Origin: an uncultured Anaeromyxobacter sp.
GTDB taxonomy: Bacteria; Myxococcota; Myxococcia; Myxococcales; Anaeromyxobacteraceae
Direction of reading: 5' to 3'
DNA length: 32,000 nt
Assembly (NCBI GenBank): GCA_903874275.1
Contig: CAIQRS010000027.1
Span: 1 to 32,000, forward strand
Positions within the stretch are counted from its first letter, which is position 1, and the number at the start of each line of letters is the position of its first letter. Below, in pieces: positions 2,090 through 22,400 of the stretch. The position numbers were made by a program, and so were the translations under genes. The notes under the pieces are model-generated. The model was given only the letters and a program-made list of their open reading frames with translations. It was not told where the DNA came from and searched no databases.

Positions 2090-3181
2090 TCACCACCGGA
2101 GGAGTACCATCTCCGCGCAGAATCCGGGCCCCATGGCGACGACCAGCCCAAGATCCCCGGGCCTGGGCTCGCCCGAATCGAGGAGGTCGCCGAGCACGAA
2201 GAGCACCGAGGCCGAGGAGAGGTTTCCCACCTCCTCGAGCGACGTCCAGGAGCGGCGCAGCGCCCCGTCGGGCAGCGCCAGGGCGGACTGGAAGGCCTCG
2301 AGCACCCTGGGCCCCCCGGTGTGGGCGATCCAGTGGCGCACGTCCCCGCGCCCGAGCCCGTGCGACGCCAGGAACCCGTCCACGTCGCCGGCGATGTTCT
2401 CGCGGGTGATGCGGGGGACCTCGGCGGAGAGCACCACCTGGAAGCCGGTGTCGCGGAAGTCCCAGCCCATCACCCACTCGGTGTCGGGGTAGAAGGCGGC
2501 CCGGGTGGCCACCACGCGCGGGCGCGGGGAAGCTTTCACTTCTCGTGAACCCCCGGCCAGGACCACCGCCGCCGCGCCGTCGCCGAAGATCCCCGAGGCC
2601 ACCGCGTTCGCCACCGAGAGGTCGTCGCGCTGCAGGGTGAGCGAGCAGAGCTCCACCGAGAGGAGGACCCCGACCCCTCCCGGAGAGCTGGACATGAGAT
2701 CGGAGAGGCGCGCCAGGCCGGCGGCGCCGGCCACGCAGCCCAGCCCGAAGATGGGAAGCCGCTTCACGTCACGCCGCAACCCGAGCCGGTTCACCAGCTT
2801 GGCGTCGATGGAGGGCGTTGCCAGGCCGGTGACGGTCACGAAGACGAGCTGGTCCACGTCGGCCGGCCGGAGCCCGGCGTCGTCGAGGGCCCGCATCACC
2901 GCCTCGGCGCCCAGCTCCTCGGCCACCCGGATCCAGGCGTCGTTCGACTTCTTGAAGGTGTCGAGGGGCGGGTAGGCGGCGAGCGGCAGGGCGAGGTGGC
3001 GCCCCTTCACCTTGACCGCCCGGTGCAGCTCCTCGAGCCGGTCGGCGTTGAAGTGCTGCGCGGCCCAGTGGGCGCGGAGTGCCGCGGTCAGGGTCTCCTG
3101 GTCGGCGTAGTTCCCGGGGAGGGCGCGACCCATGGAGAGGACCACTGGCCGTGCTTCGCTCGTCCTGGATGGGTCGTTCAC
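2090..3181 (-). CDS. Type III polyketide synthase (chalcone/stilbene synthase superfamily)
   Basis: 363 aa. All three catalytic-triad contexts are present: [11 protein letters not shown] (Cys), [13 protein letters not shown] (His) and [13 protein letters not shown] (Asn). GTG start at 3181. Confidence 0.92.
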
Positions 3182-3246
3182 CCTCGACCCCTAATGGCCC
3201 GGGACGGCACTTGCCATGCATGCCCGAGGTCTTACGCTTCCGGGAT

Positions 3247-5883
<2,637 letters not shown>

Positions 5884-5936
5884 GGGCGTGGGGAAATGGG
5901 GCGAGCCTCCTCCCACTGCCCCGATTCTCCCCGACC

Positions 5937-5966
5937 CCTGCACGGGTTTCGTGCAGGTACATTTTT
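5937..5966 (+). terminator. Rho-independent terminator-like hairpin downstream of clpB
   Basis: Stem CCTGCACG (5937-5944), loop GGTTT, stem CGTGCAGG (5950-5957), followed by GTACATTTTT with a T-run at 5962-5966. Confidence 0.6.
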
Positions 5967-6199
5967 CAACCTGCTGAAATCATTTGCGTTCCTGGAAATG
6001 GAACTTCGGAACGGGGCTTGCTCCTGGATCCGGAAAACGATTCCCAAGGAGGCCAGGTAGACGCGAGCCCTCTCATAAGACCCAAGACCTTCGGGGCCGG
6101 TGGCGAGAGCCGCCGGCCTCGTCGTTTCCGGCGGAGGCGATTCGAGGGAGAATCCGCGCCACCGTCGGAGGGTTCACCGGAAGGGGCCAGGGAGCGCAC

Positions 6200-6976
6200 A
6201 TGGAATCGGAGAGACCGAAGACCTCGATTCGCCCGCCCAGCGCGGCTCCGCTGGTTCTCGCCGGGCTCGGGGTGGTCGTTGCCGCCGCGGGCGGGCTCTG
6301 GTGGTTCCTCGGTGGGAACCCGCCTCCAACCGCCCCCGGGGCGTCGGCCCCTCCCGCCATCGTGGCTCCTGCCGGTGCGACCGGCCCGGCGGTGGACCCG
6401 GCCCGGCAGCTCTCCCTCCTCGAGGCCGTCTCGGCGAACCCCGTGCTCCGCGGGCTCCTCGTCGCGCCCGACGTGGCGCGCCGCTGGGCGGTGGCCGTCG
6501 AGAACCTGGCCAACGACGTGGTGCCGCGCAAGCAGCTCGAGCGGCTCGCGCCCACCGGCGCCTTCGCGGTGGTGCGCCGGGACGGGAAGGTCTCCATTGA
6601 CCCGCAGTCCTACACCCGCTTCGACGCGGTGGGAGACGCGGTGGCCTCGGTGAACGTGGACGCGTTCGTCATCGCCTACGCCGCGCTGCGCCCGGCGCTG
6701 GAGGCCGCCTACCGCGCCCTCGGCTACCCGGACGGCTCGATCGACAAGGCGGCGGCGCGGGCGCTCCACCGCATCGAGGTCTCCCCGGTCCGCGACGGAG
6801 GGGTCGCGGTGGTGGAGGGAACGGGCGCCACCTGGGCCTTCGCCGATCCGACGCTGGAGGGGCTCGGCGACGTCGAGAAGCAGATCCTGCGGATGGGGCC
6901 GCGCAACGCCCGCATCCTCCAGGCCAAGGCCCGGGAGATCTCCCAGGCGCTGGGAATGGGCGCGCCGGCCAGGTGA
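6200..6976 (+). CDS. Membrane-anchored protein, DUF3014-like
   Basis: ATG 6200 with GGGAG about 6 nt upstream. N-terminal TM helix (LVLAGLGVVVAAAGGLWWF). The C-terminal part has motifs I associate with DUF3014 (VENLANDVVPRK, IDPQSYTRFD, AYRALGYP, FADPTLEGL, QILRMGPRNA). The family call is from memory only. Confidence 0.75.
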   Translation: MESERPKTSIRPPSAAPLVLAGLGVVVAAAGGLWWFLGGNPPPTAPGASAPPAIVAPAGATGPAVDPARQLSLLEAVSANPVLRGLLVAPDVARRWAVAVENLANDVVPRKQLERLAPTGAFAVVRRDGKVSIDPQSYTRFDAVGDAVASVNVDAFVIAYAALRPALEAAYRALGYPDGSIDKAAARALHRIEVSPVRDGGVAVVEGTGATWAFADPTLEGLGDVEKQILRMGPRNARILQAKAREISQALGMGAPAR

Positions 6977-6995
6977 GGGGGGGGCCCCTCCTCAC
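6973..6995. terminator. Bidirectional terminator-like GC hairpin between convergent genes
   Basis: GTGAGGGGGG-GGC-CCCCTCCTCAC forms a 10-bp stem (one G-U pair) with a 3-nt loop. It covers both stop codons: TGA 6974-6976 of the plus-strand gene and TCA 6992-6994 (TGA on the minus strand) of truA. There is no T-run. Confidence 0.5.
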
Positions 6996-7735
6996 TCGTC
7001 GTAGAAGACCCGGTCGAGCACGAGCCCCTGCGGCGGGGCGGTCCTGCCGGCCAGCTTCCGGTCGCGGCTCCGCAGCACGTCGGCCATCGACCCGGCGCTC
7101 CGGGCGCCCAGGCCGACCTCGACCAGCGTCCCCACCACATTTCGCACCATGTGCTTCAGGAAGGCGGTCGCCTCGGCCACCACCTCGATGCGCCCCTCCG
7201 GGCCGTCCTGGACCTCGAGCCGTCGCAGCTCGCGCACCGCGTGTGCGGCGTCGCAGTCGGCGGCCCGGAAGGCTCCGAAGTCGTGGCGGCCCAGGAGCGG
7301 CGCGGCGGCGGCCCGCATGGCGGCGACGTCGAGGGGCCGGAAGACCTGCCAGGCCTGCAGCCTGCCCAGCGGATGGCGCGTGGGGAGGTTCTCGATCCGG
7401 TACCGGTAGCGCTTGCCCCGCGCGTCGCGCCGCGCGTCGAAGGGCGACCCGCGGACCTCGGCCTCGCGAACCGCGATGTCCTCCGGCAGGTGGGCGTTCA
7501 TCCCCTTCACGTAGGCCGGCACCGGAATGGGGCGCTCCACCGCGAAGCTCACCACCTGGCCGAGGGCGTGGACGCCGGAGTCGGTTCGCCCGGCCGCGGT
7601 CACGCGCACCGTCTCCTTGTGGAGGACGGCCAGCGCCCGCTCCACCTCGGCCTGGATCGACGGCCCGTTGGCCTGGAGCTGCCAGCCCACGTAGCGGGTG
7701 CCGTCGTAGGAGAGGACGAGCTTGACCCAGGACAC
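6992..7735 (-). CDS. truA: tRNA pseudouridine(38-40) synthase TruA
   Basis: The C-terminal 247 codons of track ORF 6992..7858, starting at GTG 7735 (VSWVKLVLSYDGTRYVGWQ...). Contains GRTDSGVHALGQV (catalytic Asp motif) and FLKHMVRNVVGTL. Confidence 0.93.
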   Translation of the reverse strand: MSWVKLVLSYDGTRYVGWQLQANGPSIQAEVERALAVLHKETVRVTAAGRTDSGVHALGQVVSFAVERPIPVPAYVKGMNAHLPEDIAVREAEVRGSPFDARRDARGKRYRYRIENLPTRHPLGRLQAWQVFRPLDVAAMRAAAAPLLGRHDFGAFRAADCDAAHAVRELRRLEVQDGPEGRIEVVAEATAFLKHMVRNVVGTLVEVGLGARSAGSMADVLRSRDRKLAGRTAPPQGLVLDRVFYDE

Positions 7736-12835: not shown

Positions 12836-13777
12836 ATGGGTGGTGACTTGCAAGATTGGCGCGTCCTCCTGTGCGCGGCGCTCCTCCTTGGCTTCACCGG
12901 CAGCCCGGCGCCGGCCGTCGCGCAGGCTCCCCGGAACCTGTTTCCCGTGAAGCCGGTGGTCTGGGACCCCGCGCCGCCGGACCGCAGCCTCGGCATCGGC
13001 AACGGCCGTTTCTTCTCCTACGCCCTCCCGCCGGGCTGGCGCGTCGGGGAGGACGGCCAGTACGCCTTGACCCTTGCCGCGCCGGACAGCAGGGCCTTCA
13101 CGGTGATGGTGGGCAACGCGGGGCTCCCCCTCGACCATCCGTGCGGCCGGTTCGTCCACGACAAGCTCTCGGCACTGAAGCCGGAGAACCTCCAGATCGG
13201 GCAGCCCCGGAAGGCGGCTCCGATCGCCGGCTTCGCCCACGCCTACCAGTTCGACGTCACCTACTCCATCCGCGGCGTGGCCTGCCGCGGGACCGTCAAG
13301 TGTCACGTCGCCCCGGCCTACGACACCGTGGTGATGGCGATGACCGCGGCACTTTCCGAGGCCAGCCAGTGGCCGGGGTACGCTTCCTGGCTGCCCCTGG
13401 TCGCCGAGCAGATCTCCGCCACCAGTGGCGCCGCCTTCGGAAGGCGCGGGATCATGGCCCAGAATCTGAAGGACTCCGCCGCGTACGCCGAGGCGGCTCG
13501 CCAGTACCGCGACTGGTCCCGGCGCACCTGGCAGCAGGTGGCCGACGACAGGAACGCCTCCCAGGACCGCAAGGCGTACCAGGTGCGGGAGAACCTCGGC
13601 GCCGTCCAGACCTACGTGAATCCCTTCGGGACGGGCGCGCCGGTGCAGCTGCCCACGACCTACAAGTACTACTGGAGCGACGACCAGGGCGGCTTTCTCG
13701 GGAGCAACGACCCGAGCGCCAACCCCAACCTGGGCTCCACCACCGAATGGAAACGGATGGCGCCGTACAATCCGTGA
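12836..13777 (+). CDS. Secreted hypothetical protein (paralogue of the next gene)
   Basis: ATG 12836 preceded by GGGGAGG. Signal peptide ...VLLCAALLLGFTGSPAPAVAQA. 313 aa with no recognisable catalytic motif. Its domain and tail organisation is shared with 13799..15268. Confidence 0.8.
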   Translation: MGGDLQDWRVLLCAALLLGFTGSPAPAVAQAPRNLFPVKPVVWDPAPPDRSLGIGNGRFFSYALPPGWRVGEDGQYALTLAAPDSRAFTVMVGNAGLPLDHPCGRFVHDKLSALKPENLQIGQPRKAAPIAGFAHAYQFDVTYSIRGVACRGTVKCHVAPAYDTVVMAMTAALSEASQWPGYASWLPLVAEQISATSGAAFGRRGIMAQNLKDSAAYAEAARQYRDWSRRTWQQVADDRNASQDRKAYQVRENLGAVQTYVNPFGTGAPVQLPTTYKYYWSDDQGGFLGSNDPSANPNLGSTTEWKRMAPYNP

Positions 13778-13798
13778 AGTCGGCAGGGGGGAGCAGCC

Positions 13799-15268
13799 AT
13801 GTCGAAGTCCATCGGTTTCACCTTGCTCTTCCGGTCGATGGTCGGCGGCGCACTCGCGGCAGCGGTCGCACTTCCGCTGGCGGCCTGCTCGTCGGGGCAG
13901 GCCGATGCGGCCCCGGCAGGATACGAGGTCGTCCGCGCCATCGACTCCGGCAAGGCGCTGTCCAGGCGCGTCCCGCAGGCCAAGACGGTTCGTGACGCCC
14001 TGCGAACGACCTTGGCGGATCTGGAACGGTACTTCGGCTCGAAGGTGCACCTGCGAGGAGCCTACGAGGACACCCGGGATCACCTGGCCGGCGGCGCCGG
14101 GTTCCAGGGGCAATTCGGGGGGCGGCCGATCCAGGGCATCATCTCCTGCCGGGTCGGCCCGGACGGCGCCTTCGTCGTCGTGGTCTATGCAAATGGCGAC
14201 GCGCCCCGGAGCGAATGGGCGCAGCTCCTCGCGGCCTCGCCCAGCGAGGGCTCCAGGCCGGATTCCCGGACCGCGGAGGCGGCCAGCTCCCCACCAGGGG
14301 CGGCGTCCTTGAAGCCCTACAAGTTCCCCGATGGAACCGGGATGATGGGCATCGCCGACGGCTGGCGCACCAGCGCCCAGTCGTGTGCCGGCCCGGTTCT
14401 GGTGCAGGGCCCAGCCGATCAGTCCGTCGGGATGGGACTCAGCTGGAGCGTGAGCACCCCCGATTCACTGGCGGTTCAGAACCATCGGCAGATGGTGGCG
14501 ACCGCGCGGCAGCTCGGCTCCCCGCCTCCCCGGTTCGAGATGCTGGTGGCGCCCTTCTCCGGGCCGCTGGATGCGATCAAGAACCTCGCGCCGCAGCTGA
14601 GCGAGATGGCGGCTCGCACGGGCGGACGGCCCTTCCAGATCGACAAGCCGGCTCTCGGTCAGGAGATGCGCCCGAGCGTCGCAGGCGGCAGGGCGGCGAT
14701 GGTCACCTACGGCTTGTCGGAGAAGGGTGCCGACGGGCGCGTCCGGCACTACCGGGCCGAGGCCTACCTCGAAACGAGCCCTCTCGGACAGGGAGCCTGG
14801 ATGATGCAGGGGGTCATCATCCGAGCCCCCGACGCCTCCTTCGAGCGCGACCTGCCGACGATGCGGGCGATGGTGTACTCGCTGAGGGAGGATGCCCAGG
14901 TCATCCAGCAGAAGACGCAGCAGGCCTTGAACGCCCAGAACCAGTGGTTCCAGGCGCAGCAGCAGGCTCATCGGCAGCAGGTCGAGGGGTTCGAGCGCCA
15001 GCAGCAGGCGCACCGGGAGGCGACGAAGGCCCGCGACCGACAGAACAAGGACTGGGAGAAGAACCAGAACGCGACGTCGCGAACGCACGACGACTACGAC
15101 GAGGTGCTCCGCGGTTACCGGACGGTCGAGGACACGCGCAGCGGGGTCAAGACCAGCGTCGATCTGGGAAACGTGGACGTCATCGTGGACAAGCTGAACG
15201 AGGCTGACCCCGGCCGGTATCGACAGATCCCCCTGCGCGACGAGATGAACCCCCTTCCCGGACGGTAG
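13799..15268 (+). CDS. Hypothetical lipoprotein with Gln-rich coiled-coil-like segment
   Basis: 489 aa. Lipobox LPLAAC|SS. Internal Gln-rich stretch QQKTQQALNAQNQWFQAQQQAHRQQVEGFERQQQAHRE. The C-terminal half resembles the preceding gene. Confidence 0.8.
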   Translation: MSKSIGFTLLFRSMVGGALAAAVALPLAACSSGQADAAPAGYEVVRAIDSGKALSRRVPQAKTVRDALRTTLADLERYFGSKVHLRGAYEDTRDHLAGGAGFQGQFGGRPIQGIISCRVGPDGAFVVVVYANGDAPRSEWAQLLAASPSEGSRPDSRTAEAASSPPGAASLKPYKFPDGTGMMGIADGWRTSAQSCAGPVLVQGPADQSVGMGLSWSVSTPDSLAVQNHRQMVATARQLGSPPPRFEMLVAPFSGPLDAIKNLAPQLSEMAARTGGRPFQIDKPALGQEMRPSVAGGRAAMVTYGLSEKGADGRVRHYRAEAYLETSPLGQGAWMMQGVIIRAPDASFERDLPTMRAMVYSLREDAQVIQQKTQQALNAQNQWFQAQQQAHRQQVEGFERQQQAHREATKARDRQNKDWEKNQNATSRTHDDYDEVLRGYRTVEDTRSGVKTSVDLGNVDVIVDKLNEADPGRYRQIPLRDEMNPLPGR

Positions 15269-15282
15269 GCGCGGCCTGGCGT

Positions 15283-16602
15283 CTACTCCGGACGCAGCTG
15301 CAGGCGGGCCTGCGACTTGAACGTGGGCTGCAGGTCGGTCCCGTCCGCGCCGGAGACCCGTCCGAACTCCAGGTCCACGGTGAGCAGGTGGGGTGGCTTT
15401 CCCAGCAAGAGGTGGCCGGAGATTCGAACGTAGGCCTGGCCGTCGCTGGCCCGGCCGGTGCGCATCCCCTCGAAGGAGACCCGGTCGCCGTCGCGCGTGG
15501 CCCGCACGGTCATGGGAAAGAAGCCGGGTGACTGGTTCGCGGGCGCGAAGGTGAACGAGTCCCGCGGTCCCAGGTACCACTTCGCCTCGCCCACGAGGGA
15601 GCGGCCGTGCCCGCGAGCCTCGGGACTTCCGAGGTACTGGTTGAAGGCCAGGACCTCGGCCGTCGCGAAGGCGAGGCGCTGCTCGGCGGGTTTCGGGGGA
15701 GCGTGGTCCGTGCGCGCGGGCTCGGCCGTGGCCACCGCCGCGGGCGGCGAATGGGGCACCTTCGCCGGCGCCGGGGCCCTCGACGGGGGCGAGCCGTTCC
15801 CGGGCGGCGGGCGGGCGGGGGCCTTCACCGGGGATGGCTTCGGCGGGGCGACGGCCGCCGAGGGAACGGCCACCGGCGAGGCATGAGCGGTGGATTCAGG
15901 GGGCGCGGCAGGCGCGACGGGCCCGCCCGACTTCCCCACCGGAATCGTCGCTGCAGGAGGCGCGGTGGCTGCGGGGGGAGCGTCGGGTCTTCCCTCCCGG
16001 AGGGTCAGGACCGCGACGACGCCCCCGATCGTGGCGAGAATGGCGGCTGCCGCGAGCCCGACCCAGAGCCGCCTGCGAGAACCCGACCCGGACTGGCCGA
16101 CCCTTCTCTTCAGGGTCTCGACGAGCTGCGAGACGTTGTGGTCCCAGTCCTGCTCGGTGAGCTGGAGGCATTGCCGGCTCAGCAGGCCGTTCAGCGACTC
16201 GGGGAGGTCGTCCTCGGCAGGGAGCGCCGCTCCTCCGACGAGCACGGGGATCACGAGGACGTCCGGGCGGCGCAGCGCCGTCCCGATCTCCAGGGCCACC
16301 ACGTCCCGCGGGTCCTTGAGCCGGCGCCTCCCCGCGGCGTCCGTCACCCCCGCCCACGCCTTCCCGATGAGGACCAGGACCACCTTGCAGCTCCCCACCG
16401 TGTGCTCGATCTCCTCCAGGTAGTTCACGCCTGGTGCGAGCCCCTTCACGTCCATGAAGACCTGGCCGGGGAAGGCGCGCTCCAGCGCGTAGAGCAGCGC
16501 GCGGGCCTGGCCGCCGCTGTCCTCGCGCCGGTAGTTGACGAAGATGGCGCGGCTGGGATCGGAACGCTCCCCGTGCCTCGCCTCCCCGGTCCCCTGGCTC
16601 AC
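15283..16602 (-). CDS. Membrane-anchored TIR-domain protein: N-terminal TIR, one TM helix, Pro/Ala-rich spacer, C-terminal domain of unknown fold
   Basis: The last 439 codons of track ORF 15283..17697. GTG 16602-16600 overlaps the RyR gene stop (GTGA), with GGGAAGGGAGGGG upstream. TIR_2-like motifs: IFVNYRREDS, VFMDV, CKVVLVLIGKAW, DVVALEIGTAL, VIPVLVGGAALP. The TM helix follows RRR (LWVGLAAAAILATIGGVVAVLTL). A Pro/Ala-rich segment of ~100 aa follows, then a ~130-aa beta-rich tail. Confidence 0.88.
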   Translation of the reverse strand: MSQGTGEARHGERSDPSRAIFVNYRREDSGGQARALLYALERAFPGQVFMDVKGLAPGVNYLEEIEHTVGSCKVVLVLIGKAWAGVTDAAGRRRLKDPRDVVALEIGTALRRPDVLVIPVLVGGAALPAEDDLPESLNGLLSRQCLQLTEQDWDHNVSQLVETLKRRVGQSGSGSRRRLWVGLAAAAILATIGGVVAVLTLREGRPDAPPAATAPPAATIPVGKSGGPVAPAAPPESTAHASPVAVPSAAVAPPKPSPVKAPARPPPGNGSPPSRAPAPAKVPHSPPAAVATAEPARTDHAPPKPAEQRLAFATAEVLAFNQYLGSPEARGHGRSLVGEAKWYLGPRDSFTFAPANQSPGFFPMTVRATRDGDRVSFEGMRTGRASDGQAYVRISGHLLLGKPPHLLTVDLEFGRVSGADGTDLQPTFKSQARLQLRPE

Positions 16603-16913
16603 CGCGCCCCTCCCTTCCCGGACGGACCGTGGATGCCGAAGCCGAGCGCACAGAGGGCCTTCAGGGTCTCGCCCACCGCGATGCGGTCGTACTTCTTCTC
16701 CTCCTCGGGGAGTTCCTCGTAGGGCACCAGGCTGGGGTGGAGCCTGGCCGCCTCGTCGCGGTGCGGACCCCACCGCCACCCGTCCGAGAGCCGCTCCAGG
16801 GCCCAGGCCTCGTGGGCGTTGCGGGCGAGCAGTTCCAGGACGGCCGCCACCTCGGCGGGCAACCGCACCGTCGCGGTGTCCAGGGGTGCGGGTTGATATC
16901 GTTTGGACGGCAT
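16599..16913 (-). CDS. Small RyR (ryanodine-receptor repeat, Pfam RyR-like) domain protein
   Basis: 104 aa from ATG 16913 (the track start 16925 is a TTG). LLARNAHEAWALERLSDGWRWGPHRDEAARLHPSLVPYEELPEEEKKYDRIAVGETLKALCALGFGI matches the bacterial RyR-domain pattern (HE.W....GW.yG......k.HP.lvPy.eLpeeeK.yDR). Confidence 0.85.
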   Translation of the reverse strand: MPSKRYQPAPLDTATVRLPAEVAAVLELLARNAHEAWALERLSDGWRWGPHRDEAARLHPSLVPYEELPEEEKKYDRIAVGETLKALCALGFGIHGPSGKGGAR

Positions 16914-16982
16914 GACCGGACCCAACTCTCGCGCACCTCTGGTGGAATTTCACAATGCCTCGTTCATGGTAGCTTCGAGGGA

Positions 16983-16992
16983 CCCATATGGG
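16983..16992. repeat. Perfect 10-bp palindrome CCCATATGGG in the divergent intergenic region
   Basis: Read directly from the sequence. It lies in the 136-bp, visibly AT-richer spacer between the RyR/TIR and OMP/SLATT operons. Function unknown (candidate operator). Confidence 0.3.
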
Positions 16993-17049
16993 CGGGGACG
17001 AGGGGGCAGCGATCGGGCACTCTCGGGCTCCATCGACGGGGGGCGCACG

Positions 17050-17739
17050 ATGAAGCGACTTTGCGTGGTGTTGTTCCTGGCCGTGGGGATCCTCTCCGCG
17101 GGGCGCGCGTCGGCGCAACAGGGGGTTGACCCGTTCCTCAAGTCGGCGCCCCCGGGGCCACCCGAGAGCGGCGTCTCCATCGGGTTGAGCGTCGGGTACG
17201 CGCTGCCCATGGGCAACGTCAGCGGCTCCCAGCCGATGAGCGACCTCTTCAGCGGGGCCCTCCCGCTCCAGCTCGACGTGGGGTGGCGCTTCACGCCGAA
17301 TCTCTACGCGGGAGCCTTCTTCCAGTACTCGTTCGGCTTCCTCAGCTCCTTGCAGAACGCGGCGTGCACCGCAAACGGCTGGACGAGCTGCACTGGTGGT
17401 GACATGCAGTTCGGCCTGGACTTCGTCTACACCTTCCTGCCCTACGCGACGTTCGCGCCCTACGTGGGGCTGGGCGTGGGCTGGGAGATCGCGACCCTCA
17501 GCTACTCGGGCTCGAACCAGTCCATCTCGGAGTCGGTCTCGGGATTCCAGTTCGCGCGCATCCTCGTGGGCGGGGACTTCCGGGTGGGGTCGGCCTTCCG
17601 GGTCGGGCCCTTCGTGAACTTCTCCTTGGGCCAGTTCAGCAGCCTGAGCTCCCCGGACCCGGCCGCCAACGGCACGATCGCCAACAAGGCGCTCCACGAG
17701 TGGCTCCAGTTCGGGATCAAGGGCACCGTCGACCTGTGA
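17050..17739 (+). CDS. Small outer-membrane beta-barrel protein (OmpW/OMP_b-brl-like)
   Basis: ATG 17050, 229 aa. Signal peptide MKRLCVVLFLAVGILSAGRASA|QQ. Alternating amphipathic strands (LQLDVGWRFTP, MQFGLDFVYTF, YVGLGVGWEI, FRVGPFVNFSLG, WLQFGIKGTVDL). One Cys pair, CTANGWTSC. Confidence 0.8.
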   Translation: MKRLCVVLFLAVGILSAGRASAQQGVDPFLKSAPPGPPESGVSIGLSVGYALPMGNVSGSQPMSDLFSGALPLQLDVGWRFTPNLYAGAFFQYSFGFLSSLQNAACTANGWTSCTGGDMQFGLDFVYTFLPYATFAPYVGLGVGWEIATLSYSGSNQSISESVSGFQFARILVGGDFRVGSAFRVGPFVNFSLGQFSSLSSPDPAANGTIANKALHEWLQFGIKGTVDL

Positions 17740-18656
17740 CCGGGGGCGTGCAGACCGGGCCCCCCTCGTTCGACGCCTACCCCGGCCTGTACGTCGCGGC
17801 CGACGCCGCCGCGGTCTCGCTGCAGCGCCAGCACTTCCTGGGCGAGGCGGTGCTTCTGGTCCTGAACCCGCTCAGCGCGGCGCTGGTCCTGGCCATCGCG
17901 CTCGGCGTGGTGCGCTTGCAGTTCGCCGTGCTCACCGCCTTCTCCACGACGCTGCTCGTCCTCGTGCTCTGGGTGGTGCGTGCCAGCCGATGGCAGAACC
18001 AGTGGTACGACTGCCGCAGCGCCGCGGAGGACCTGAAGCGGATCACCTGGCGCTACCTCATGCAGCTCGATCCGTTCCCGCCCGGCGCGCCTGCTCCGGA
18101 CGCGAGCTTCGTCCGCGCCATGGAGGAGGCGGTGCGCGACCATCCCGACGTCCTTCGCGCGCTGGGCAGGCGCGCCCACGTCCTCGCGCCTCCGGTCACC
18201 CCCGAGATGCAGCGGATCCGGCGGGCCAGCGCGTCCGAGCGCGCCGAGATCTACCTCGCCTCCCGCCTTCGCCCCGAGGCGGCCTGGTACGCAGCCAAGG
18301 CGGAGCGCTTCGCCGCCGCGGACCGGAGGTGGTTCGCCGGACTGATCCTCGTGCAGGTCGCGGCGGTGGTCTCGGCCATCGTCCTGGCAGCGCGGGTCCA
18401 GGGAGGGGGAGCCGGGAGCGCCGCCGCGGACAGCTGGGTCCCCATGCTCACGGCCTTCGGGACCGCGCTCATGGGCTGGCAGCGCTCCAAGCGCCATGCG
18501 GACCTGACGATGTCCTACTCCGCCACGGCGCAGAAGCTGGCCGGATTCGAGTCCAGCCGGCCGCCGCTCGCGGAGCCGGCCGCCTACCTTTCCTGGGTCG
18601 AGCGGGTGGAGGCGACGCTCGCACAGGAGCACGAGGCCTGGCGGCACATGACGTAG
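17736..18656 (+). CDS. Tandem 2TM+2TM SLATT/DUF4231-like membrane protein (predicted membrane effector family)
   Basis: GTG 17736 overlaps the OMP stop (GTGA), 306 aa. Hydrophobic pair 1 (AVLLVLNPLSAALVLAIALGVV / FAVLTAFSTTLLVLVLWVV) is followed by WQNQWYDCRSAAEDLKRITWRY. The second unit has RLRPEAAWYAAKAERFAAADRRW, then two more helices (FAGLILVQVAAVVSAIVLAA / WVPMLTAFGTALMGW). These are the patterns I associate with SLATT and DUF4231 families. Confidence 0.75.
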   Translation: MTGGVQTGPPSFDAYPGLYVAADAAAVSLQRQHFLGEAVLLVLNPLSAALVLAIALGVVRLQFAVLTAFSTTLLVLVLWVVRASRWQNQWYDCRSAAEDLKRITWRYLMQLDPFPPGAPAPDASFVRAMEEAVRDHPDVLRALGRRAHVLAPPVTPEMQRIRRASASERAEIYLASRLRPEAAWYAAKAERFAAADRRWFAGLILVQVAAVVSAIVLAARVQGGGAGSAAADSWVPMLTAFGTALMGWQRSKRHADLTMSYSATAQKLAGFESSRPPLAEPAAYLSWVERVEATLAQEHEAWRHMT

Positions 18657-18678
18657 CGCCGCCAGGTCGGGTGGACGG

Positions 18679-19377
18679 TCAGAAGAGCCGGTATCCGGCG
18701 AAGGCCTGGACCATGAACGCGAAGGCCGCCGAGGAGTTCTTGGCCGTGGGGATCATCACGCCGAAGCGGGTGTTCAGGCCGATGGCGATGTTCGGATCGT
18801 CGAAGTGGTACTCGACGTAGGGGCCTGCCCAGGGGCCGATGACGAAGTTCACCGGGTCGGTGACGTTGAGCGCCAGGTTGAGATCGAGTCCGCCGCCGAT
18901 CTCGAGGTTGTGCGCCACCGGGAAGCCTCCCACCACGCCCGCCGGGAAGGTGAAGGCGAACAGGGTCTTGCTCGTGTCGTAGCAGAAGCTGGTTCCGGCC
19001 ACGCAGGTGCTGCCCGAGAAGTAGAGCCGGACCCCCGGATCGACGTGGAACACGAGGTTGAACTTTTCCCCCTTGATGAACTGGAAGCGCAGCGGCGCCC
19101 AGAGCCCGAGGCCGAACTGGGTGTAGGTCGTGCCCTCGAGGCCGTAGAGGAGGCCGAAGCGGATGCCCATGTCGGACGCCTTGCCCAGGTTGAACGTGTA
19201 GCCGAAGTTGACGTTCGGCCAGCCAGCCTGGACGTCCTCGAATGGCTTGCCGGTATTGATCTCGCTGCCGACGACGCTCCAGTCCCCCAGCCCCTTGCCA
19301 TGCTGGGAACGCTGGGCGTGCACGGCGACGGGGGCGATGGCGAGTGCGACGGCGACGGCCAGCATCGGGAATCTCAT
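18679..19377 (-). CDS. Small outer-membrane beta-barrel protein
   Basis: ATG 19377 with GGAGGAG upstream, 232 aa. Signal peptide MRFPMLAVAVALAIAPVAVHA|Q. Canonical C-terminal beta-signal ...AFAGYRLF. One Cys pair, CVAGTSFC. Confidence 0.85.
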   Translation of the reverse strand: MRFPMLAVAVALAIAPVAVHAQRSQHGKGLGDWSVVGSEINTGKPFEDVQAGWPNVNFGYTFNLGKASDMGIRFGLLYGLEGTTYTQFGLGLWAPLRFQFIKGEKFNLVFHVDPGVRLYFSGSTCVAGTSFCYDTSKTLFAFTFPAGVVGGFPVAHNLEIGGGLDLNLALNVTDPVNFVIGPWAGPYVEYHFDDPNIAIGLNTRFGVMIPTAKNSSAAFAFMVQAFAGYRLF

Positions 19378-19532: not shown

Positions 19533-20273
19533 TCACGGCGCTCCTCGAGGCGGCGAGGCGCCGCCGCACCTCATCCGCCCCTCCAGCGCCTTCGCGTTCA
19601 GCGGGTCGCGCCGGAGGGCATCGTCGTAGGCCTTGATGGCGAGCTTGCAGTTGCCCTTGGCCCGCTCCTGGTCGCCCATCTTCACGTAGCGCGCCGCGCT
19701 CCCGCCACCCACCTCGTTGGGAAAAGCGGCCCGCTCCGGGTTCACGATGCGGTCCACCGCCGCCTGGTCGAGCTCGCCGAGCAGGAGGCGCACCCGCGCC
19801 CGGACGATCTCGCAGGAACGCAGCCGCTGGTAGGGCTCGACCGCGTGGACCTTCCCCTTCGCGTCCACGATGACGATGACCGGGTGCTGCCGCAGCTCCA
19901 GCCGGCCGTAGACCCGGTCCCCCTCGTCGAGCAGGATCGGCGACTTCACCCCCGACCCGGCCACCATCGCCTGGACCTGGTCGCGCGGCGCGCCCGCCGA
20001 CACCACGCCCACCGTGTGGACCGGCTTGCCGGCGAAGAGGGGCTCGCACTGGGCGAGTCTTCGCAGGGTGTCCGCCGAACGATCCTGCTCGGGGCGGAAG
20101 AAGACCACCAGGTTGACCTGCCCCGGGACGATCAGCGCGTGGCGGCCGCCCGCCAGGGTCGCGAGCTCGGCGCCCTCCACGAGGGTCCCGGCCTCGACGT
20201 GGCCCCTGGCCGCGGCCGGCGCCCCGAGCAGCGCGACCGCCAGCGCGACCAGCAAGCCAGCATTCGCCGTCAT
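19533..20273 (-). CDS. Periplasmic thioredoxin/redoxin-fold (no catalytic Cys) plus TPR protein, paralogue 2
   Basis: The last 246 codons of track ORF 19533..22196. ATG 20273 overlaps the upstream stop (ATGA). Signal peptide MTANAGLLVALAVALLGAPAAA. The redoxin-like core VNLVVFFRPEQDRSADTL has no CxxC or Cys at the catalytic position. C-terminal TPR-like KLAIKAYDDALRRDPLNAKAL. Confidence 0.75.
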   Translation of the reverse strand: MTANAGLLVALAVALLGAPAAARGHVEAGTLVEGAELATLAGGRHALIVPGQVNLVVFFRPEQDRSADTLRRLAQCEPLFAGKPVHTVGVVSAGAPRDQVQAMVAGSGVKSPILLDEGDRVYGRLELRQHPVIVIVDAKGKVHAVEPYQRLRSCEIVRARVRLLLGELDQAAVDRIVNPERAAFPNEVGGGSAARYVKMGDQERAKGNCKLAIKAYDDALRRDPLNAKALEGRMRCGGASPPRGAP

Positions 20274-21118
20274 CTCTTCCCCTCGCAGCCACGCCTGCCC
20301 TCGGCGGCCGATGCGCTCCCCGGGTCGATCTTCAGCGCCTGGTCGAAGGCGGGCAGCGCCTGGCGGCACTTCCCCTGCCCGGCCAGCGCCTGGCCCATGA
20401 GGACGTGGGCCGCGGCCAGCCCGGGCTCCTTCTCCAGCGCGATCCGCGCCTGCTCGGCGGCCTTGGACCACTGCCTGGATTCCAGGAACATCTCGCCGAG
20501 CTTCACGCGCCGCCCGGCCACGGCGCCCGGCACCGCGTTGGGGAAGAGGGCCTTCTGCGGCTGGTCCACCCGCTCGACCGCCGCCAGGTCCACCTCGTGG
20601 AGCGCGTGGCGGATCCGCACCCGGATCATGTCGCAGTAGTTGATCCGGTGGTACGGCACGTAGTCGAGCAGCGCCCCCTTTTCGTCGGCGATGCCGATCA
20701 CCGGGTGCAACCGCACGCCCAGCTTGCCGTAGAGCGCGTCCCCCTCGTCGAGCAGCACCGGCATCTGGATGCCGGACGCGATCACGAACGCCCTCAGCTC
20801 GTCGCGCGCGTGGCTCCCGGAGACGACCGCCACCCAGCGCACCGGCTTGGCCGTGAACTCCTTCTCGCAGACGGCCATCGCCTTCAGCGTGTCGAGCGAC
20901 CGATCGTGGCCGGGCCGGAAGAAGACCAGGACGTTGGCGAGCGCCTTCCCGGACAGGAGCATCTCCCGGCGTCCGTCGAGGGTGGCCAGTTCCACGTTCT
21001 CGACCCGCTGCCCCACCTCGACGTTGGCGAAGGCCGAGCCGGTGAGCGGCCAGAGCACGCCGGAGAGCGCCCCCCCGAGGACCCCCAGGATCAGCCGTCG
21101 CCTCGCCTGCTCGCCCAT
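20270..21118 (-). CDS. Periplasmic thioredoxin/redoxin-fold (no catalytic Cys) plus TPR protein, paralogue 1
   Basis: 282 aa with a signal peptide. The core NVLVFFRPGHDRSLDTLKAM...PVLLDEGDALYGKLGVRLHPV is collinear with the downstream paralogue. C-terminal TPR-like repeats (AAAHVLMGQALAGQGKCRQALPAFDQALKIDP). Confidence 0.78.
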   Translation of the reverse strand: MGEQARRRLILGVLGGALSGVLWPLTGSAFANVEVGQRVENVELATLDGRREMLLSGKALANVLVFFRPGHDRSLDTLKAMAVCEKEFTAKPVRWVAVVSGSHARDELRAFVIASGIQMPVLLDEGDALYGKLGVRLHPVIGIADEKGALLDYVPYHRINYCDMIRVRIRHALHEVDLAAVERVDQPQKALFPNAVPGAVAGRRVKLGEMFLESRQWSKAAEQARIALEKEPGLAAAHVLMGQALAGQGKCRQALPAFDQALKIDPGSASAAEGRRGCEGKR

Positions 21119-21124
21119 CCGCCG

Positions 21125-22180
21125 CTACCTCTCGTAGCTCTTGGTGTCGTGGCAGGTCCGGGCGCACTGCCCGCCGGTGGGGGTCTTCAGGTAGTTGATC
21201 TTGAGGACCCAGCCGGTCGGGCCGTAGGGGACGCCGTCGCGGACGTGTCGGGGTTGCCGGGAGGCGTGCACCTCGTGGCAGGCCCGGCAGGCGCGGCCGC
21301 GGTCGGCCTTGTTCACGTGCAGGAAGTGCAGGTTGCGGGAGCCGTCGCGGAAGTTGGTGAGGGTGCGCGTCTCCGGCTCGCTCACCACCTTCTCGTTGTG
21401 GCAACTGAAGCACAGCGCGTAGTTCTTGCGGTCGTACGCCGAGTAGAATGTGGCCGGGTACTCGGCGATCAGCAGGCGGAAGTTCTCGCCGCCGTGCGTC
21501 CGGTGGCAGGCGGAGCAGTCCTTGGCCTGGACCGGCGCGTGCTTGACCTTGTTCTCGTCCAGCCACTTCTTGTAGTTCGTGAGGACGACACCCTCGTGGT
21601 CCTTCATGTCGTCCACGGCGTGGCAGCTCACGCACTGGTCGTAGGGCAGCTGGATGAGCAGCTTCTCCACCGAGGTTCCGTGGGGGTTGTGGCAGTTGGC
21701 GCACTTCGCGCCCTGGTCCAGGGCGCCGTGCTTCACCTTCGACGTCTCGGCGATCTCCTTGACCTGCCGGTGGCAGTCCTTGCAGCCCGTGGCCAGCTCG
21801 GTGTGGAGGAGCCCTCGCTCCCGGGAGTTGTGCGCGTTGTGGCAGTTGAGGCAGCTCTCCACCGCCGGCGGGTGCTGGTACGGGCGCTTCATGATCTCCT
21901 GGAACTCGTCGTGGCAGGAGTAGCAGAGCGCGTTGCCGCTGGTCGTGACCGGCCCGGGCTTCCTTGGATCCGCGCTGGCGTGGCAGATGGAGCAATCGCC
22001 CGCCTCGTAGGGCGCGTGGCTCCAGGCCGTCTTCTCCCTGGCGGGCAGGGGGCCCGGGTTCACCTTGAAGGTGTGCTTGCGGAGCGCCTTCGGCTCCGTG
22101 GACGGCGCGCCCGCCGCCGGGCCAGGCAGCGCCAGCGCCGCGGCGCAGGCCACCGACACGAGGATCTTCGCCCACGCCAT
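21125..22180 (-). CDS. Multihaem c-type cytochrome (9 CxxCH plus 1 CxxxCH)
   Basis: ATG 22180 with GGAGGA 8 nt upstream, 351 aa. Signal peptide MAWAKILVSVACAAALALPGPAAGA. Haem motifs: CSICH, CYSCH, CLNCH, CKDCH, CANCH, CVSCH, CSACH, CFSCH, CRACH and CARTCH. Several are of the CxxCHxxH type. Confidence 0.93.
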   Translation of the reverse strand: MAWAKILVSVACAAALALPGPAAGAPSTEPKALRKHTFKVNPGPLPAREKTAWSHAPYEAGDCSICHASADPRKPGPVTTSGNALCYSCHDEFQEIMKRPYQHPPAVESCLNCHNAHNSRERGLLHTELATGCKDCHRQVKEIAETSKVKHGALDQGAKCANCHNPHGTSVEKLLIQLPYDQCVSCHAVDDMKDHEGVVLTNYKKWLDENKVKHAPVQAKDCSACHRTHGGENFRLLIAEYPATFYSAYDRKNYALCFSCHNEKVVSEPETRTLTNFRDGSRNLHFLHVNKADRGRACRACHEVHASRQPRHVRDGVPYGPTGWVLKINYLKTPTGGQCARTCHDTKSYER

Positions 22181-22400
22181 TCGTGCCGTCCTCCACGCGT
22201 CGAGACGCGACCAGGGTTGCATGGCAGCTTTCTCACGGTCCGCACGGCCCGGCAAGGTTCCGTGGCCGATCGGGCGCGAGAAAGTTCACTGTAGGTCTAA
22301 GTGGGAACGGGTGGGCGCGGAGGACCCGGGCCATTCGACCGACAGTAAATGCTCGCTGACCGCCTTGCTACGTCCTTCCGCACGAACGTAGGATGGCGCC

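Follow-up and report, generated by a model that had tools for sequence, protein, structure and literature searches.

Type VII Thoeris consists of a TIR protein (ThsB) and a SLATT protein (ThsH) (Yirmiya et al., bioRxiv Dec 2025, doi 10.64898/2025.12.03.692087). It defends against phages, canonical cyclic ADP-ribose (cADPR) is made in a phage-dependent manner, and toxicity is triggered specifically by cADPR; in validated systems ThsH answers added cADPR without any protein carrying a ryanodine receptor (RyR) domain (doi 10.64898/2025.12.03.692087). Phages in turn encode small PF02026 (RyR) proteins, termed RyDEP, which bind 2'cADPR and 3'cADPR and some of which are sponges (Lopez Rivera et al., bioRxiv May 2026, PMC13232231). 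DyoEdafos gp78 is a glycosidase with a H75/D117 dyad, in which W78 stacks on the adenine and H100 on the phosphates (PMC13232231). Here we analyse a 32,000 nucleotide stretch of DNA from an uncultured Anaeromyxobacter sp. (contig CAIQRS010000027.1; the window), in which a cassette at 15283-19377 combines TIR, SLATT and RyR genes with a gene for an outer-membrane protein (OMP1). On balance, we consider it somewhat more probable than not that this cassette is a Thoeris-type abortive-infection variant with a type VII core, triggered from the envelope and equipped with a built-in signal buffer or off-switch. The membrane-receptor TIR with its own OMP and the RyR domain in the operon are additions unlike described Thoeris. 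As far as we know, the described Thoeris TIRs are soluble cytoplasmic sensors, and we know of no Thoeris system reported with a built-in signal remover or buffer.

The genes form two divergent, translationally coupled pairs, RyR-TIR on the minus strand and OMP1-SLATT on the plus strand, with the following features:

15283-16602, minus strand: receptor-like TIR protein, ThsB analogue, 439 aa, with a TIR_2 match
16108-16554, minus strand: cytoplasmic TIR domain, aa 17-165, from the alignment to the SARM1 TIR
16288-16290, minus strand: codon of the putative catalytic Glu105, coordinates checked by translation
16006-16062, minus strand: single transmembrane (TM) helix, aa 181-199, preceded by RRR, from a hydropathy scan and the positive-inside rule
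15679-15990, minus strand: Pro/Ala-rich spacer, about aa 205-308, about 55% Pro+Ala, predicted to span the periplasm
15286-15678, minus strand: C-terminal extracytoplasmic small beta-barrel domain, aa 309-439, from an AlphaFold2 (AF2) model; putative sensor and OMP contact
16599-16913, minus strand: cytoplasmic RyR (R12, PF02026) protein, 104 aa, predicted binder or hydrolase of cyclic ADP-ribose signals
16914-17049, no strand: divergent intergenic region of 136 bp with 65% GC, presumed to hold both promoters
17050-17739, plus strand: OMP1, small outer-membrane beta-barrel with signal peptide, 229 aa, predicted partner of the periplasmic domain of the TIR protein
17736-18656, plus strand: tandem SLATT_3 + SLATT_1 membrane effector with 2 x 2 TM helices, ThsH homologue, 306 aa, predicted signal-gated pore
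18679-19377, minus strand: OMP2, second putative outer-membrane protein, 232 aa, converging on the SLATT gene; doubtful member

The SLATT protein matches SLATT_3 (E 1e-24) and SLATT_1 (E 4e-19), and both NCBIfam SLATT models score above their cut-offs. Its AF2 model is all-helical (pLDDT 79); a fold search of the PDB with this model gave a best E of 0.77, and a profile search of PDB sequences gave no match. TIR domain sequences of type VII systems were taken from the Thoeris preprint (Table S1) and searched against the loci that we had collected. The validated Alteromonadales TIR matches the TIRs of L013, L014, L016 and L017 (E 2e-73 to 2e-69), the validated Pseudohongiella TIR matches that of L011 (E 2e-25), and the TIR of Bacillus PvP124, which is annotated as type VII and gave no defence when tested, matches that of L015 (E 5e-71). 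The SLATT proteins at these loci share the SLATT_3+SLATT_1 architecture of the window protein, which aligns with the SLATT proteins adjoining type VII TIRs over the full length (phmmer E 1e-24 to 1e-28). Because of this homology and shared architecture we regard the window SLATT as a ThsH homologue. An earlier reading, made from the sequence alone (the sequence-only reading), had held that the gene set matches no named TIR system. This has to be corrected, since TIR plus SLATT is the composition of type VII Thoeris. The same reading was right about the absence of ThsA (SIR2/Macro-SLOG), STING and cyclases: no ThsA, CD-NTase or pyrimidine cyclase was found in the cassette or among the Pfam-annotated flanking genes of any related locus.

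More distant relatives of the SLATT protein (22-33% identity, aligned over residues 15-302) were found in Planctomycetota, Gammaproteobacteria, a deltaproteobacterial metagenome-assembled genome (MAG), Gemmatimonadota, Dormibacteraeota and Actinomycetota. They lie directly beside TIR genes in all these groups except Actinomycetota, and TIR-SLATT adjacency is independently recurrent in at least five other phyla. At L011 (3333-6806, Planctomycetaceae MAG) the ThsH-like SLATT gene is flanked by three TIR genes and a gene for a nucleoside 2-deoxyribosyltransferase-like protein, a multi-TIR version of the type VII layout.

The window locus therefore resembles type VII Thoeris in having a TIR with a catalytic Glu near a membrane protein of about 300 aa, SLATT_3+SLATT_1, that is homologous over its full length to the neighbours of type VII TIRs; the distance from the TIR gene to the SLATT start is 1.1 kb. 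It differs in that the window TIR is SARM1-like, belongs to another clade and is unmatched by the three type VII TIRs, and in that it is a 439-aa membrane receptor, whereas the type VII TIR is a soluble protein of 130-180 aa. Furthermore, the cassette is arranged in two divergent operons with RyR and OMP1 as extra genes.

The divergent arrangement of TIR-RyR and OMP1-SLATT is also present in five other Anaeromyxobacteraceae genomes (L004, L005, L006, L007 and L009). A tblastn comparison of 18 window genes with these five loci showed that only the four cassette genes are common to them, plus OMP2 in the two closest. The window included, the cassette is located in at least four different neighbourhoods. 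Conservation of the gene neighbourhood, a check that the sequence-only reading had asked for, is thus found: the four genes are kept in six species-level genomes while the flanks change, and they appear to move as a unit, as a mobile cassette. Chance adjacency of the two pairs was rejected, since they are conserved together with changing flanks. The pairs might also be functionally separate, the TIR protein being a stand-alone NAD+-depleting effector with a RyR partner and OMP1-SLATT merely lying next to it. The divergent transcription would fit, as would the solitary occurrence of relatives of the window TIR, and some bacterial TIR proteins are NADase effectors. This explanation is highly improbable, given that the four genes stay together when every flanking gene has changed, that TIR and SLATT genes have become neighbours repeatedly in other phyla, and that OMP1, as described below, tracks the C-terminal domain of the TIR protein.

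The match of the 439-aa protein to TIR_2 (E 8e-9) covers residues 20-161, and its best solved relative is the TIR domain of human SARM1 (E 4e-4, residues 17-158). The window TIR is thus most similar to that of SARM1, a cADPR-producing NADase. Glu105 aligns with the catalytic Glu of SARM1, which we take to be E642 in our numbering, and is invariant in all seven aligned homologues. The motif ALEIGTAL had already been proposed to carry the catalytic Glu; it contains Glu105, and the window TIR looks catalytically competent. In the orthologues from the five other genomes the TIR domains are 80-90% identical and the position of the TM helix is kept. The Pro/Ala spacer differs between species in length and sequence, with both flanking domains conserved. 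AF2 models the C-terminal domain (aa 309-439) with high confidence (pLDDT 93.4) as a strand-helix-beta-barrel unit. A fold search of the PDB gave only weak avidin/calycin-like barrels (E 0.016, TM-score about 0.44), a resemblance too weak for a fold-family assignment, and the search of a viral library gave no match. Ig-like repeat matches cover only residues 35-70 of the domain and were deemed unreliable. Altogether, the domain was found in only about 12 representative proteins in a search of 1.8 billion, among them two Ser/Thr kinases that carry it at their ends and are built on the plan kinase, TM helix, Pro/Ala-rich linker and the same C-terminal domain. We infer that the TIR protein is an inner-membrane receptor with a periplasmic sensor domain. 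By analogy with TonB, an extended spacer of about 105 residues could cross the periplasm.

The receptor plan of extracytoplasmic sensor, single TM helix and cytoplasmic TIR is also that of the animal Toll-like and IL-1 receptors. In the cassette protein the orientation is reversed, with the TIR domain at the N-terminus, and the ectodomain is unrelated, so that the resemblance is probably convergent. A membrane-anchored TIR of the clade of the window TIR is also encoded at L030 (6593-9984, Dormibacteraeota MAG), on one strand with a trypsin-PDZ (HtrA-like) protease and a SLATT_3+SLATT_1 protein. There a Cys-rich C-terminal region replaces the beta-barrel domain, and the locus has neither OMP1 nor RyR.

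The sequence-only reading had paired the OMP with the SLATT protein; the evidence now ties OMP1 to the periplasmic domain of the TIR receptor. At L107 (2668-7583, JGI 3300025326 contig) one of the kinases, 816 aa long, is encoded head-to-head with an OMP1 homologue, followed by a gene for an FHA-GAF-guanylate cyclase. The C-terminal domain of this kinase is 56% identical to that of the TIR protein, and its divergent neighbour is 45% identical to OMP1 (E 2e-67). L107 seems to couple this envelope sensor to a kinase/cyclic-nucleotide output. In a sample of 98 distinct loci, gathered for other purposes, OMP1 and the C-terminal domain occur together in all six other loci that have the domain, and OMP1 is present in none of the 92 loci without it. 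This supports the earlier idea of an envelope-spanning system, as the two also occur together when a kinase takes the place of the cytoplasmic TIR, and it links the RyR-TIR and OMP1-SLATT operons to each other. We infer a trans-envelope input module, made up of OMP1 and the periplasmic domain, which could be attached to different cytoplasmic outputs. A one-TM inner-membrane protein with a Pro-rich periplasmic spacer, a C-terminal domain and an outer-membrane beta-barrel partner is a plan shared with TonB, FecA-FecR and PknB-type receptor kinases, and the sensor domain of the window TIR is also carried by Ser/Thr kinases. The cassette differs from these devices in that OMP1 is a small barrel and not a TonB-dependent receptor, in that TonB, ExbBD and anti-sigma domains are absent, and in that the output is a TIR domain. 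No solved relative of OMP1 was found.

OMP2 has a signal peptide and ends in ...YRLF. It has no family match in Pfam or NCBIfam and no similarity to OMP1. Apart from the contigs of the window itself, only two of the five related loci have it, L006 and L007, which are the closest relatives. Thus OMP2 was rejected as a core member, in contrast to OMP1, and is no conserved part of the cassette.

The RyR protein matches PF02026 with E 1e-30 (106 bits against a gathering score of 27.4) and repeat 1 of the mammalian RyR1 Repeat12 (R12) domain with E 2e-20. The Pfam profile searches thus gave matches for the TIR, RyR, OMP and SLATT calls of the sequence-only reading, that for OMP1 just below the cut-off. 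The RyR protein is 36% identical to RyDEP over the core and is without the N-terminal extension of about 40 aa. An alignment to gp78 places H34, W37, H59 and D76 exactly at RyDEP H75, W78, H100 and D117, and all four are invariant in 21 bacterial homologues. The small, soluble PF02026 protein of the window has therefore kept each of the residues that hold and cleave 3'cADPR in the phage protein. It differs from RyDEP in being encoded by the host in a TIR operon, with a presumed role in self-regulation and not in immune evasion. No phage genes were found in the cassette or its flanks; the RyR gene is chromosomal and coupled to the host TIR gene. The RyR protein had initially been left without a function. 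Since PF02026 domains bind or cleave cADPR isomers (PMC13232231), it is better seen as a signal regulator than as an unexplained extra. RyR is unmentioned in the Thoeris preprint and its tables and in the review of the Aravind group.

Contexts of RyR genes were drawn from seven independent host loci and 59 viral loci; none of the viral loci has SLATT or TIR neighbours. In the host loci that encode the small RyR proteins closest to that of the window (52-64% identity), the RyR genes adjoin SLATT-type proteins, with no TIR within the 5 kb flanks retrieved. At L037 the RyR gene is convergent with the gene for a DUF4231/SLATT_1 protein. At L039 and L043 it is translationally coupled to genes for mutually homologous 4-TM proteins with weak colinear SLATT similarity, and at L034 it stands ahead of a gene for a membrane TrkA_N-RyR fusion protein. 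Animal ryanodine receptors, which contain this domain, are ion channels. These observations would fit an alternative in which the RyR protein is the signal receptor: having bound what the TIR makes, it would gate or nucleate the SLATT pore, making a bacterial cADPR-regulated RyR-domain channel. We regard this alternative as rather doubtful. In validated type VII systems ThsH needs no RyR to answer cADPR, and the window SLATT has the same architecture; the coupling of the RyR gene is with the TIR gene and not with the SLATT gene; and the partners at L039 and L043 can be assigned to SLATT only weakly. In addition, the RyR-domain proteins characterised so far all act negatively on signalling, as sponges or as a glycosidase (PMC13232231).

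The partners at L039 (5001-6379) and L043 (5001-6466) are 362 and 388 aa long, have 2+2 TM helices, are 31% identical to each other (E 6e-28) and belong to no confident Pfam family. Pfam SLATT_1 matches them with E 9e-5, and hhalign gave E 8e-4 and 0.02. They have a C-terminal motif, E-x-x-L-E-x-D/E-H-R/E-x-W, in common with the tandem SLATT proteins, and the RyR genes at both loci probably adjoin SLATT-type membrane proteins. The L034 locus (5001-7254, GCA_040767665.1) encodes a 125-aa RyR protein and, directly after it, the membrane fusion protein, which is 613 aa long and has TrkA_N and, at the C-terminus, RyR. The RyR gene at L042 is without a membrane partner; the gene after it was rejected as a SLATT gene because it encodes a secreted low-complexity protein.

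The receptor idea can be extended to an ancestral bacterial version of the animal axis. A SARM1-like TIR would make cADPR, and a free RyR (R12) protein would be the dedicated receptor regulating a SLATT pore or, elsewhere, a TrkA_N-RyR fusion; the whole would be triggered from outside via a Toll-like plan of OMP-linked ectodomain, TM helix and TIR. We put this forward tentatively, with a low probability. The action of cADPR on ryanodine receptors is a long-standing open question. If this reading is true, the long-sought module by which ryanodine receptors bind cADPR would be their R12 domain, and the cassette would offer a natural cognate pair to prove R12-cADPR binding.

For the Thoeris-type reading with a signal buffer we propose the following course of events. 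The periplasmic beta-barrel of the TIR protein, held out on the Pro/Ala spacer, would work together with OMP1, and a surface disturbance, most plausibly phage adsorption or envelope damage, would alter the contact between OMP1 and the receptor. The cytoplasmic TIR domains would thereby be driven together, and, as expected for this family, the SARM1-like TIR would use Glu105 to turn NAD+ into a cADPR-type signal. Validated type VII systems use canonical cADPR (doi 10.64898/2025.12.03.692087). By homology to ThsH, the signal would bind to the cytoplasmic face of the SLATT protein, leading to oligomerisation and a breach of the inner membrane, and growth would stop before the phage cycle is complete. 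Translational coupling would yield the RyR protein in a fixed ratio with the TIR protein. Its conserved residues and the biochemistry of RyDEP suggest that it would bind and possibly hydrolyse the cyclic ADP-ribose signal, and this could set a threshold against leaky TIR activity, reset the system, or both. On the host side, the RyR protein would then correspond to the RyDEP sponges and glycosidases of phages. A similar logic is known from type III CRISPR, where the ring nucleases of the host (Crn1-3, Csx3) have a viral counterpart, AcrIII-1. There too, the host removes its own cyclic-nucleotide alarm with an enzyme of the same family as a viral anti-defence enzyme. The likeness is one of analogy only, as the fold and chemistry of the ring nucleases are unrelated to the RyR protein.

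Several observations weigh against this reading. PADLOC, which the sequence-only reading had suggested running, gave weak TIR and 2TM matches only and called no system, and NCBIfam likewise gave no system name. The layout is that of two divergent operons and not the two-gene operon of the described type VII systems. The window open reading frames (ORFs) gave no phmmer match at E <= 0.01 to the type VII TIR domain sequences of Table S1, a clade test with three representatives only, and three relatives of the window TIR elsewhere are solitary, with no SLATT or RyR gene nearby. The RyR gene is absent from 23 other SLATT_3+SLATT_1-type loci (L011-L033), about eight of which have TIR neighbours, so it is not a general part of a type VII-like system; none of these 23 distant loci has RyR or OMP1, and a search for the four-gene set outside the Anaeromyxobacteraceae, which covered these loci and the three TIR relatives, gave none. 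The ligands tested with the RyDEP homologues were 2'cADPR and 3'cADPR, canonical cADPR not being among them, all the proteins were viral, and the conserved residues failed to tell hydrolase from sponge (PMC13232231). OMP1 scores 26.3 bits against OMP_b-brl (PF13505; E 1e-5), below the cut-off of 28.7 bits, with its L107 homologue at 21 bits, and outside the cassette the link between OMP1 and the periplasmic domain comes from one locus, L107. Known defence or mobile-element genes were found in none of the cassette neighbourhoods. All cassette genomes are metagenome-assembled, and the functional roles are read from sequence.

The neighbourhoods are made up of other genes. The window cassette is flanked by genes for an M16 peptidase and a multihaem cytochrome. 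L006 has CBAH and FKBP genes on one side and an alcohol dehydrogenase gene on the other, L007 a radical SAM enzyme gene on one side and a HAD hydrolase gene on the other. At L004, L005 and L009 there are xanthine-dehydrogenase-type genes (L005, L009) and GH3 (L004, L009) or DUF4397 (L005) genes, then tig-clpP-clpX; lon was also called in the flanks of L004 and L005. As there is no defence-island context, the cassette might instead have a signalling role outside defence. It could be an envelope-stress, kin-recognition or programmed-death module, in which the OMP-linked receptor reports surface events via a TIR second messenger. Housekeeping genes surround the cassette in every neighbourhood, OMP1 and the periplasmic domain also serve a Ser/Thr kinase near an FHA-GAF-guanylate cyclase, seemingly an ordinary signalling context, and relatives of the window TIR are often solitary. 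We nevertheless consider such a role unlikely, because the output protein is homologous to a defence effector validated as cell-killing, because the four genes change place together among related genomes, and because the conflict between phage and host over TIR signals is so far the only setting from which RyR-domain proteins are known. Moreover, a plasmid island that encodes PycTM and TIR proteins contains another host RyR gene.

This island, L106 (Priestia aryabhattai plasmid NZ_CP128553.1, 56618-68887), encodes on one strand a PycTM effector, two hypothetical proteins, a TPR-S protein of 489 aa with an adenylate/guanylate cyclase annotation and a RyR protein of 94 aa. Converging on these are genes for a 3-TM protein of 153 aa, a 280-aa protein and a 743-aa TIR protein. 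L106 is thus a second, unrelated host RyR gene amid nucleotide-signalling defence genes. At L004, the gene next to the TIR gene on its outer side (2232-4679, minus strand) encodes a protein of 815 aa that weakly matches ZU5 and Ig-like/cadherin-like domains. ZU5 domains occur in other bacterial conflict systems.

A receptor-like TIR, the pairing of OMP1 with the periplasmic domain and a host RyR coupled to a TIR are not described in the searchable literature, the coverage of which is incomplete. If true, the TIR-coupled host RyR would show that bacteria regulate cADPR-type alarms with the phages' own anti-alarm family. A TIR receptor wired to an OMP points to sensing at the cell surface, perhaps when phages adsorb, and abortive infection would then be triggered by a different logic. 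The OMP1 and periplasmic-domain module, common to TIR and kinase receptors, would be an undescribed trans-envelope sensing unit. With a SARM1-like TIR, a RyR domain and a cADPR-type effector in one operon set, the cassette is also tractable for the question of R12 and canonical cADPR.

The window has a GC content of 72% and is rich in spurious ORFs, and gene models were hence checked by GC content at third codon positions (GC3) and against public gene calls. All five gene models at 15283-19377 are reproduced exactly by public calls on identical metagenome contigs. In the TIR frame, GC3 in 150-nt windows is 0.86-0.96 from about 16650 to 15283 and lower upstream; the sole exception is a value of 0.78 within the Pro/Ala linker. 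This profile favours the internal GTG start of the TIR gene over an 804-aa ORF. The GTGA overlaps were read directly: 'tcac' on the plus strand at 16599-16602 for RyR/TIR and 'gtga' at 17736-17739 for OMP1/SLATT. The gene models, the overlaps and the spacer that is richer in AT than the window as a whole had all been described correctly from the sequence.

Promoter and terminator scans were uninformative at 72% GC, and no match to the sigma-70 consensus was found in the spacer. An alignment of the spacers of five species, including L004, L005 and L009, contains a conserved element, CCCAT(A/C)TGGGCG, present in the window as CCCATATGGGCG at about 16985-16996, some 55-60 nt ahead of the OMP1 start. 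GGGGAA precedes the element in three species, in which GGATATAAG or CACTATAAG follows about 20 nt on. The element may be a shared promoter or operator of the OMP1-SLATT operon.

To the left of the cassette, at 12836-15268, are two co-directional genes for proteins of 313 and 489 aa with N-terminal signal/lipoprotein-like sequences, the second with a LAAC lipobox. This pair has no Pfam, NCBIfam or PADLOC match and is present only on the window-identical contigs L001 and L002, not in the related loci; it lies outside the cassette. Downstream of OMP2, at 19533-22255 on the minus strand, are genes for proteins of 246 and 282 aa, the second with weak TPR matches, followed by the gene for a multihaem c-type cytochrome (Paired_CXXCH). 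All are ordinary respiratory and envelope genes, and they mark the right-hand edge of the cassette.

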